A stretch of DNA of 63,943 nt, filler included, from Reclinomonas americana ATCC 50394 (lineage: Eukaryota), in assembly GCA_048213135.1 (NCBI GenBank). It is 16 parts of 16 records of this genome, joined end to end, with 100 filler letters (N's around TTAATTAATTAA, not from the genome) between each part and the next. Parts side by side here need not be neighbours in the genome. Positions count along the whole stretch, not along the records: positions 59,291 to 62,655 come from AFZH01018299.1; 15 more parts are not named here. The stretch is one strand, 5' to 3'. Positions 59,473 to 61,113 of the stretch are shown in pieces. Below the pieces are notes generated by a model. That model made no database searches. It was not told where the DNA came from and saw nothing but the letters and a program-made list of their open reading frames with translations. Numbering within the stretch: the stretch's first letter is position 1; each line of letters begins with the position of its first letter. The position numbers were made by a program, and so were the translations under genes.

Positions 59473-61113
59473 CGCATGGCTCGATACACCAAACACCTCT
59501 CCCTTGTACCGTCGTCCGCAAGCGTCGCGTATCCAAGCAGAGGAACAAGCCGGCGATGATACAGACGCCCAATAGTGTTCATCTGCATCACCAATGAGTG
59601 AGCACACTCCAAAGGTCACTTCCCTTCTACTCTTTGCAAACCTCGGCATCATACGACTCCATCGCCCACGGCGCGGTGCTGTCGATCCGCTTGATGGCCA
59701 CATCCTCACCGTCCAGCAAGCACAGATACACCTCGCCTTGACCTCCCTCACCGGCCTTGTATCGCCGGTGGAAGGACTCGGTGGCGGAGACCACGTCGGC
59801 CCAGCCGTACTTGCGCAGGCGGCCGGGATGGGATGCTGGAAGTTGGACAGGGTGAGACAAGGAGATCGATGCGAACAGCAACCTCCCTGCTGCGCAAGCA
59901 CACCTTGCAGATTGCTCAACTCGCGGCGGAGACGATCGACCTGGCGGGCCAAGTCGGCGGATCGCTGCTGCTCGGTGGCAAGCGACTGCTCGAGGGCGGC
60001 GCACCGCTCGTCAGTCCCACGTTCCAGCTGCGCCACCCGTTCCACTGCCACCGCCCTGGCTTGTACCATCTCGGTCAGCGCTTGCGCCAGCTGCGCCTCC
60101 CGCTCTCCCGCGAGCATGTTGTCTCGCTGCAGCTCGAACACACGCTGACGATGCTGCGTCGCGATGACGTCGTGCTCCCGGCGCTGCGTTTCGAGTTGCC
60201 GCTCAAGTTCGCGCACTTGTTGGTCGTGCTCTCGGCGCTGCTGTTCGAGCTCGCGTTGGAGACGAGTGACATCAGCAGCAGACTGCGACGCGACAAGTAA
60301 GATTCAGCAACGGGGGCAAGCAAGAAGATTCACAGCGAGCCACCTGTTGCGCTGCGACGCCTGCATGTGACAACCGAGTCAGTATGGCAAGATGTGCAGA
60401 GCAGCAAGTCAAACGAAAGCACCTGGCACGAGTGCTGGCCGTGCAGCGAGACTGTCGAGCAGGTCGGCCACTCGCCGCTGACCCTCAGCGCGTGCCCACT
60501 GAGCCGCCGTCTTGCCCTTGGTGTTGACCACGGGAATGAGCTCGGGGAAGCGCGTGGCAAGGAGTCGCACAATCTCCTCGCGGCCCTTCCACGCAGCGAA
60601 ATGCAGTGCCGTGCACTCGGCATGCGTGGCAGAGTAATTGGTGACTGCTCGCACCACCTCCTGCGGGCACCGTCGCTCATCGGCCAGCAGCCATTCCACC
60701 ACTGCCAGGTGTCCTTGCAAGGCAGCCTCCATCAGTGGGGTCACACCACCGCGGGCGACCAGTTGGGCGAGTTGTGGGCCCACGCCACTCTCCTCCCACA
60801 GGTACTCCAGTGCACGCAGGTGGCCTCCGAGGGCGGCATATTGATAGGCCGAGCCGCCCTTGTCGCTCATTTCGTCTCTGTGCAGCAGTGTCTGTGCGCC
60901 CTCGCTGGTGACCAACTCGCGCAGTGCTTGCACGTCGCCGTTCCATGCTAGTTCGTAGGCTTTCTTTCGAGGTGGTGGCGGTGGGGGTGGGTTGGGAGGA
61001 GCTCTGGTGGTGGTGTGCATGAGAGGGGAAGAAGAAGAAGAAGAAGAAGAAGAGGCAGTCAGAGTGCGAGGGGGAGAATGCAGTGCGAACCTGGCGTTCT
61101 GTGCGGCACTCAT
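59473..61113 (-). CDS. Ankyrin-coiled coil-kinase protein with an IRAK/Pelle/RLK-like N-lobe (3' part missing beyond the gap)
   Basis: MSAAQNAR, ANK cassette (61003-60422), a 17-nt exon, coiled coil, then RKYGWADVVSATESF...GEGGQGEVY...DVAIKRI...YDAE|MNTIGRLYHRRLVPLLGY...RCLVYRAM. Confidence 0.8.

Follow-up and report, generated by a model that had tools for sequence, protein, structure and literature searches.

Plant pattern recognition and animal Toll/IL-1 signalling have at their core kinases of one class, the receptor-like kinases (RLKs) and their Pelle/IRAK relatives. The question raised by a locus of the protist Reclinomonas americana ATCC 50394 is whether a kinase of this class is encoded there behind ankyrin repeats, in a soluble protein. 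The locus was read from a window of 63,943 bases (the whole stretch of DNA that was analysed, taken from assembly GCA_048213135.1), which is composed of 16 contigs of 1.2–9.3 kb with a GC content of 51–61%. The kinase gene in question, called the target below, lies on a contig of 3.4 kb (59291-62655). It is probably a genuine spliced gene, of which the 5′ two-thirds are present, for a soluble signalling kinase of the RLK/Pelle/IRAK class. The likely order of its parts is a disordered Ser/Pro-rich N-terminus, an ankyrin module, a coiled-coil helix of about 125 residues and, directly behind it, the kinase domain. The positions of all features are collected in Table 1.

Exons 4 and 5 of the target together encode 100 residues of a kinase N-lobe. 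Every motif string quoted in the original prediction was recovered from the translation: YGWADVVSATESF, GEGGQGEVY, VAIK, …DAE followed across the exon break after the alphaC Glu by MNTIGRLYHRRLVPLLGY, and RCLVYRAM. The leader, LLGY and LVY, named there as hallmarks of RLK/Pelle/IRAK kinases, are present, with the leader defined as in passages of PMC10916322 and the Tyr gatekeeper as in passages of PMC3182414. The former describes an extension of an amphipathic helix plus TxxF directly before the Gly-loop, with a consensus of 14 amino acids, as distinctive of the superfamily, found in BAK1, BRI1, FER, BIK1 and IRAK1/3/4 and useful for the detection of members; according to the latter, a Tyr gatekeeper appears to be confined to IRAKs in a comparison of more than 400 human kinases. 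The catalytic residues of the N-lobe (GxGxxG, beta3 Lys and alphaC Glu) are intact. The target also agrees with the consensus of 67 aligned N-lobes at most strongly conserved columns, namely A-T and F of the leader, G-EGG-G-VY, LDG, VA-KR, the alphaC E, H-R-LV-LLGY and LVY..M. Its beta4-beta5 loop is four residues longer than in the reference kinases and its hinge reads YRAM, compared to YEYM in the consensus.

When exon 4 was searched against the PDB with phmmer, BRI1 was the best match (E = 9e-6), and the first 21 of 44 rows at E ≤ 10 were plant RLKs, receptor-like cytoplasmic kinases (RLCKs) or IRAK1. The top rows comprised BRI1, LysM-type receptor kinases, CERK1, LYK3, a lectin receptor kinase, BAK1, Pto, FERONIA, SYMRK and IRAK1; bacterial StkP, CDK, MAP3K12, RNase L, NEK7 and haspin followed in later rows at E ≥ 0.5. 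Exon 5 independently ranked RLKs first as well, with BRI1 as best match (E = 4.3e-4) and seven of its eight rows at E ≤ 10 taken by BRI1, SOBIR1 and SYMRK. Among 1.84e9 representative sequences, 69 matched exon 4 at E ≤ 1e-3 (best 3.7e-14), and names were looked up for 30 of these. They consisted of 22 land-plant sequences (including CRK, LecRK-S.2/PBL and CrRLK1L-type kinases), one from Closterium, one fish IRAK3, one ‘TKL/IRAK protein kinase’ of Capsaspora, two unnamed short fragments and three non-kinase proteins. Many of the top scores are inflated because the matched gene models hold two or three kinase domains. Identity to the plant kinases was approximately 31–52% over the matched stretches, and over the N-lobe at most 40% to any reference. 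The three best Atlas clusters for exon 4 were all of Streptophyta. Three matched sequences (P0023, P0037 and P0067) were rejected as kinase relatives; Pfam identified them as non-kinase repeat proteins, and their scores are sums of many weak repeats.

A hidden Markov model (HMM) was built from 67 matched N-lobes, with the target left out. Four non-RLK kinases served as controls: a bacterial Ser/Thr kinase, P0018 (an ankyrin-kinase protein from a JGI sample), P0009 (a Phytophthora ankyrin-kinase protein) and the kinase of a paralog elsewhere in the window. The bacterial kinase is the single locus, of high GC content, found in a metagenome scan with exon 4; the part in common is the Gly-loop only, and it was used as the outgroup. 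The joined 100-residue N-lobe of the target scored 86.1 bits (E = 4.7e-28), against 31, 24, 12–19 and 7 bits per domain for the controls in the order given. The T and F of TxxF, both present in the target, occur in 61 of the 61 kinase matches, in all three Capsaspora TKL/IRAK domains and in none of the four controls. The Tyr gatekeeper of the target is shared by 43 of the 61 matches and two of the three Capsaspora domains, again with none among the controls. The score of 86.1 bits and the count of 61 out of 61 are both inflated, because the references were chosen by similarity to the leader-containing exon 4. With Pfam, exon 4 (64 residues) gave a Pkinase score of 14.3 bits (E = 0.027), below the cut-off of 31.7, and exon 5 (36 residues) gave none, as the separate exon pieces are too short; the identification as a kinase is based on the matches in the PDB, those among the representatives and the score against the N-lobe HMM.

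A homologous-protein search returned no longer-protein homologs, either for exon 4 or for the C-lobe of the paralog. An unnamed fragment of 121 residues, P0073, has GGQGxVYLCxLDG in common with the target, and its kinase similarity ends right after the alphaC Glu, at the position of intron 4 of the target. This suggests that P0073 is an open reading frame (ORF) call reading into a conserved intron, possibly from a relative with the same exon boundary.

Among the alternatives, the one that survives best is that of a lineage-specific kinase of the tyrosine kinase-like (TKL) group outside RLK/Pelle/IRAK, in which the leader, LLGY and the Tyr gatekeeper would be ancestral or convergent. Several points weigh on that side and against membership of the class, the choice of references and the N-lobe identity of at most 40% among them. 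Without its leader, the remaining core of exon 4 (43 residues) had no significant match in the PDB; the best row was a designed ankyrin (E = 0.009), with plant RLKs ranking first among the kinases (E = 0.06–0.2). The trees were built on the matched sequences, a fragment of the fish IRAK3, the three TKL/IRAK domains of Capsaspora and the four controls, without curated RAF, MLK, LRRK, RIPK and STKR references. In the first tree the target was joined to P0023, P0037 and P0067. Before the second, these non-kinase sequences and the fragmentary Closterium sequence P0084 were dropped, the Capsaspora sequence P0048 was split into its three domains and the fish IRAK3, P0058, was cut to one. On 103–104 columns the N-lobe trees were largely unresolved: the target fell inside an RLK/IRAK polytomy, not robustly nested in any plant subgroup, together with the control P0009, and the fish IRAK3 was misplaced. 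Approximately unbiased (AU) tests on 28 of the 61 plant-like rows, the three Capsaspora domains and the four controls rejected neither of two placements of the target, with p = 0.65 for one outside the RLK/IRAK sample and p = 0.72 for one inside it. Passages of PMC10463195 place most oomycete and amoebozoan receptor kinases in lineage-specific clades, despite plant-like architectures. The C-lobe of the target (HRD, DFG, activation segment and APE) was absent from its contig and from the window by motif scan and tblastn, which found only that of the paralog.

On the other side stand the independent ranking of RLKs by both exons and the two signatures themselves, of which helix plus TxxF is distinctive of the superfamily (passages of PMC10916322) and the Tyr gatekeeper restricted to IRAKs in the human kinome (passages of PMC3182414), and neither of which occurs in any of the four controls. 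The branch that splits the target and the references from the bacterial, P0018 and paralog controls had an SH-like approximate likelihood ratio (SH-aLRT) support of 86–87. The tree constrained to hold the target with RLK/IRAK was 6.8 log units above the free search, compared to 4.4 for the alternative. The kinase phylogeny put forward as a check in the original prediction could be made for the N-lobe and puts the target in the RLK/IRAK polytomy, whereas a placement in the clade did not follow from it, given the two AU values. On its signatures and best matches the target likely belongs inside the RLK/Pelle/IRAK clade, although this is not shown by the tree, and a TKL kinase outside the class is considered unlikely.

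The gene model supports a spliced and open gene. The coordinates proposed beforehand, 59473-61113, are exactly those of the coding sequence (CDS) modelled on the minus strand, with the ATG at 61113; an alternative in-frame ATG upstream is possible at 61170. Five exons with AG/GT at all internal boundaries are separated by introns of 62, 61, 68 and 59 nt, and their 463 joined codons contain no stop. The putative micro-exon 2 restores the frame between exons 1 and 3. A single GT-AG intron of 147 nt (60429-60283) keeps the frame too, with a loss of eight residues, and this counts against five exons; the micro-exon model was favoured because it retains ‘…ALVP’, comparable to ‘…QLVPP’ of ANK1 in the paralog. 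The GC fraction of the CDS is 0.64. At third codon positions (GC3) it is 0.68 for the front end and 0.73 for the kinase part, and with values this similar the composition shows no foreign or chimeric join.

The target contig ends 182 nt into intron 5, so that only about 100 kinase residues are covered. In this last stretch (59291-59472) no recognisable kinase exon was found; the frame of exon 5 stays open into it, but the translation is RE-rich and not that of a kinase. It was probably at the (CT)n run (59378-59411) that the assembly broke off. The original prediction had treated 59191-59290, just beyond, as a gap that could be closed to recover the C-lobe. This interval proved to be one of 15 identical joiners of 100 nt (N44 + TTAATTAATTAA + N44) that separate the 16 contigs of the window, and adjacency of the next contig (57897-59190) is therefore not established. 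That contig is mostly a (CTCA)n-type microsatellite, and no kinase-like ORF, motif or tblastn match was present on it.

It could be argued from this that the target is a dead gene fragment, an ankyrin and coiled-coil gene that gained only N-lobe exons or lost the rest, and encodes no functional kinase. The missing C-lobe, the microsatellite-bearing stretch between exon 5 and the contig end, and an apparently orphan duplicate of the ankyrin module at 33494-34207, by which partial duplications occur in the family, would all fit a pseudogene. Against this, 463 codons are open over five exons with canonical splice sites, all catalytic and structural residues of the N-lobe are conserved, and a proper GT donor closes exon 5 in phase 2, as would be the case for an exon with others behind it. 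The gene moreover breaks off just where its contig stops, among contigs of 1.2–9.3 kb. A pseudogene is accordingly held to be quite improbable, and the reading as a genuine, truncated kinase gene is retained.

In front of the kinase, exon 1 matched the ankyrin families of Pfam well above their cut-offs: Ank_2 with 65.6 bits (E = 6.3e-18; cut-off 27.3), Ank with 50.8 bits (E = 1.3e-13; 21.1), Ank_4 with 49.6 (22.7), Ank_5 with 48.8 (27) and Ank_3 with 38.8 (22.3). Only ankyrin families were found in this search, and no Death domain match at E ≤ 1. Exon 1 had 18 homologs among longer proteins, all generic ankyrin proteins with 29–35% identity over 42–65% of the query, one of them with 43% over 25%. 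A single-sequence AlphaFold2 (AF2) model of this exon was poor, with a predicted local distance difference test (pLDDT) score of 43. For exon 3, AF2 gave one continuous helix over residues 2–125 with a mean pLDDT of 97.7. The exon contains no Pro, 70% of its residues are R, Q, E, A or L, and its Pfam coiled-coil matches are weak and below cut-off; the predicted helix fits a coiled coil.

The helix (ending …RRELSNLQ) is followed after only about nine residues by the kinase leader. There is thus no further domain in between, and the absence of a HEPN-like segment from the target, as noted beforehand, is correct. The highest Kyte-Doolittle mean over 19 residues in the target protein is 1.1, hence no transmembrane-like segment is present. 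A plant-type receptor layout of signal peptide, ectodomain and single transmembrane helix was not found, the N-terminal part being ankyrin plus coiled coil, and the protein appears soluble from its sequence. Of the ankyrin-fused cytoplasmic Pelle-like kinase originally proposed, the order of ankyrin, coiled coil and kinase, the solubility and the RLK-type signatures and best matches are borne out; the placement in the clade is not, in view of the AU values.

The window holds a paralog of the target on the contig 32929-39049. Its two ankyrin modules are 55% (E = 2e-67) and 59% (E = 2e-55) identical to that of the target, and its coiled coil, longer than that of the target, is matched weakly at 35844-36080 (E = 0.001). 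Its kinase, in at least two pieces, is of another type. In PDB searches the best matches were EGFR, AMPK and CDK6 for the N part and TAK1, RIPK1 and CTR1 for the C part, no RLK occurred in the best 60 rows of either search, its gatekeeper is Leu, and between this kinase and the target N-lobe there was no similarity at E ≤ 1e-3. The claim that the two genes share an ankyrin and coiled-coil front end but differ in kinase type is thereby upheld, and it follows from the shared front end and the dissimilar kinases that one front end has been combined with two different kinases. An ORF of about 200 residues lies between coiled coil and kinase in the paralog; its assignment as HEPN was without support from Pfam, the one test made, where the best match had E = 0.12 (GRIM-19). 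The two ankyrin modules of the paralog lie about 350 bp apart and the first (33494-34207) appears to be without a coiled coil and kinase of its own, suggestive of partial duplication or of a short gene in its own right.

Two further origins are very improbable: that the kinase exons stem from a green-lineage donor, by horizontal or endosymbiotic transfer, with fusion to a native ankyrin and coiled-coil part, or that the contig is a mis-assembled chimera. In their favour, the nearest matches are overwhelmingly streptophyte, and in the paralog the common front end is followed by another kinase. But land-plant RLKs dominate the top matches regardless of origin because they are very numerous, and identity to the plant kinases is only about 31–52% over matched stretches and does not exceed 40% for the N-lobe. 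The trees gave no robust nesting of the target within any plant subgroup, and the gene is uniform over its length in GC3, intron size and splice signals. A chimera is further opposed by splice phases that match across the junction and by the same domain order in the paralog.

As a probable member of the RLK/Pelle/IRAK class, the target can be compared with known kinases. Plant RLKs and RLCKs (BRI1, CERK1, BAK1, Pto and FERONIA) have in common with it the helix plus TxxF leader, GxGxxG, VAIK, the alphaC Glu, H-x-x-LV-x-LLGY and LVY with the Tyr gatekeeper, a residue common at this site in plant RLKs, and RLCKs, like the target, have no signal peptide or transmembrane segment. Unlike these plant kinases, the target has an N-terminal part of ankyrin repeats and a coiled coil of 125 residues, a longer beta4-beta5 loop and a YRAM hinge. 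Some plant RLCK classes have a coiled-coil-like stretch before the kinase. An N-terminal motif rich in E, A and K is described for RLCK-IXb in passages of PMC10916322.

Animal IRAK/Pelle kinases resemble the target in an alphaB-like extension with TxxF (passages of PMC10916322) and in the Tyr gatekeeper (passages of PMC3182414), and IRAK1 and fish IRAK3 were among the matches. The scores of the target to IRAKs, 15–18 bits, are below those to plant RLKs, and the N-terminal part of IRAK/Pelle is a death domain (Pfam Death in the fish IRAK3, P0058), in place of which the target has ankyrin repeats and a coiled coil. The Capsaspora protein P0048, named TKL/IRAK in the NCBI annotation, is like the target in TxxF (three of three domains) and the Tyr gatekeeper (two of three) and scored 23–30 bits per domain against the target N-lobe, but consists of LRR_6 and three kinase domains. 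RNase L, the paralog and the Phytophthora ankyrin-TKL protein P0009, like the target, carry ankyrin repeats ahead of a kinase or pseudokinase. They differ in kinase type: RNase L reached only 12.6 bits against exon 4, and P0009 12–19 bits against the RLK HMM compared to 86 for the target. ILK and TNNI3K are ankyrin-bearing kinases of other classes. In Phytophthora infestans, passages of PMC3019232 report five IRAK-class TKLs with unknown function, all predicted to be inactive and four of them with a transmembrane domain; the target differs by its ankyrin and coiled-coil parts and its intact catalytic N-lobe.

RLK/Pelle kinases are reported, in passages of PMC10868138, from land plants, charophytes, about half of the chlorophytes examined, Prasinoderma, a glaucophyte and animals, and not from rhodophytes or fungi; the same passages discuss two accounts of the green-algal members, transfers on the one hand and a single origin followed by losses on the other. 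Members in apicomplexans are mentioned in passages of PMC10916322, and choanoflagellates are described as lacking IRAK in those of PMC6040629. In the titles, abstracts and passages covered, no arrangement of ankyrin repeats, coiled coil and RLK/Pelle kinase was found; the tables on domains in PMC12757656 and those on the kinome in PMC3019232 are places that could hold one.

How such a protein could work may be proposed by analogy. The ankyrin repeats would recruit the target protein to a partner, and the coiled coil would dimerise or oligomerise it, so that adjacent kinase domains could trans-autophosphorylate. The logic of proximity would be that of IRAKs clustered by their death domains. The leader of helix and TxxF, placed straight after the coiled coil, may cap the N-lobe and so regulate it; such a role is reported for FERONIA, whose kinase domain consumes ATP faster without this extension (passages of PMC10916322). 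The family itself may have arisen by recombination of one ankyrin and coiled-coil module with different kinase exons. A link of the target to innate immunity or defence is one that we can only infer. In its widest form, which is doubtful and offered as speculation, the proposal would make the ankyrin and coiled-coil part an exchangeable, lineage-specific front end, exon-shuffled before at least two unrelated kinases, one of them a bona fide RLK/Pelle/IRAK kinase. The target would then be an oligomerisation-driven soluble IRAK-like kinase, a death-domain-independent counterpart of Myddosome-type activation by proximity, in a eukaryote from outside plants and animals and with a possible role in cell-autonomous defence or stress.

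Table 1. Positions of the features of the target, of its paralog and of the remaining window.
Feature	Position	Strand	Remarks
Target, exon 1	61113-60423	minus	ATG at 61113; Ser/Pro-rich low-complexity N-terminus, then ankyrin domain; ends in phase 1 at GT donor
Target, ankyrin repeats	60499-60948	minus	Exon 1, residues ~56-205; Pfam
Target, exon 2 (putative micro-exon)	60360-60344	minus	17 nt (…GVAAQQ…); AG/GT flanks; between introns of 62 and 61 nt
Target, exon 3	60282-59904	minus	Helical coiled-coil segment; 126 residues, R/Q/E/A/L-rich
Target, exon 4	59835-59642	minus	Kinase N-terminal extension and first part of N-lobe; 64 aa; final codon is the alphaC Glu
RLK/Pelle-type leader YGWADVVSATESFH	59768-59809	minus	Helix and TxxF (‘ST motif’); HMMER alignment to BRI1 leader
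Glycine-rich loop GEGGQGEV	59729-59752	minus	Motif scan and consensus comparison
VAIK with beta3 catalytic lysine	59690-59701	minus	K in 70 of 70 aligned rows
Target, exon 5	59582-59473	minus	Rest of alphaC through hinge RAM; 36 aa; ends in phase 2 at GT donor
HRRLVPLLGY	59529-59558	minus	alphaC-beta4 motif, compare H-x-N-LV-x-LLG-Y/C
CLVY with Tyr gatekeeper	59484-59486 (Tyr)	minus	Aligned to LLVY of BRI1
Start of intron 5 (GTGCGT…) to contig end	59291-59472	minus	182 nt; (CT)n microsatellite at 59378-59411
Artificial joiner N44-TTAATTAATTAA-N44	59191-59290		No strand; marks contig boundary
Paralog locus	33494-38723	plus	On contig 32929-39049; ankyrin modules, coiled coil, ORF and kinase pieces
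Paralog, ankyrin modules	33494-34207; 34563-35081	plus	55% (E 2e-67) and 59% (E 2e-55) identity to target
Paralog, coiled coil	~35277-36100	plus	Longer than in target
Paralog, ORF between coiled coil and kinase	36357-36956	plus	~200 aa; best Pfam E 0.12 (GRIM-19)
Paralog, kinase pieces	37114-37644; 38013-38723	plus	Kinase in at least two pieces
WD40 propeller (four strong repeats); EGF-like ORF; LRR_6-type pieces; polysaccharide deacetylase	2181-3218; 3386-4372; 16729-17379; 19176-19379; 22056-22874	plus; plus; plus; plus; minus	Pfam

Directly upstream of the target gene and divergent from it, a tandem array on the plus strand (61151-62655) reaches the other end of the contig. It was missed by Tandem Repeats Finder (TRF) and found by a separate repeat search. 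About 3.4 units of approximately 432–450 bp, 60–90% identical, were counted, each with an ORF of about 140 residues (MSDGDAPGDG…FLLLALFDRARASDTPG…) without a Pfam match. Near-identical ORF pieces (…KPVTGAEEYTPNHHQPTFTQLWRV…KKTR.DGWTKRLPSCA…) were located at 57628-57796 and 58170-58400 on the plus strand, adjoining contig ends; these are probably a dispersed repeat at which the assembly breaks. The load of intergenic (CTCA)n, (CT)n and (CA)n, and of C/T-rich tandem repeats of 11–12 nt, is very high, for example at 58750-59190 and 63660-63943.

Over the 64 kb of the window, neither tRNAs (ARAGORN) nor Rfam families were detected. Pfam searches of 25 plus 38 other ORFs gave matches on four only. 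The polysaccharide deacetylase match had an E-value of 2.6e-21, with Atlas clusters of mixed bacterial and fungal content, and one of the LRR_6-type (leucine-rich repeat) pieces has a weak similarity (E = 0.008) to the LRR region in the TKL/IRAK protein of Capsaspora.

With its combination of ankyrin repeats, coiled coil and RLK-type kinase, the target presents a known class of kinase in a new arrangement of domains, read from a truncated gene. Its practical value is for now limited by this truncation, and the class in unicellular eukaryotes has already been annotated (Capsaspora) or published (passages of PMC3019232). The origin of RLK/Pelle/IRAK kinases and their patchy distribution outside plants and animals are still debated, and a soluble member with an ankyrin and coiled-coil front end would add a new architecture to the class. 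Together, the target and its paralog would give a clean example of one recruitment and oligomerisation module joined to different kinases.

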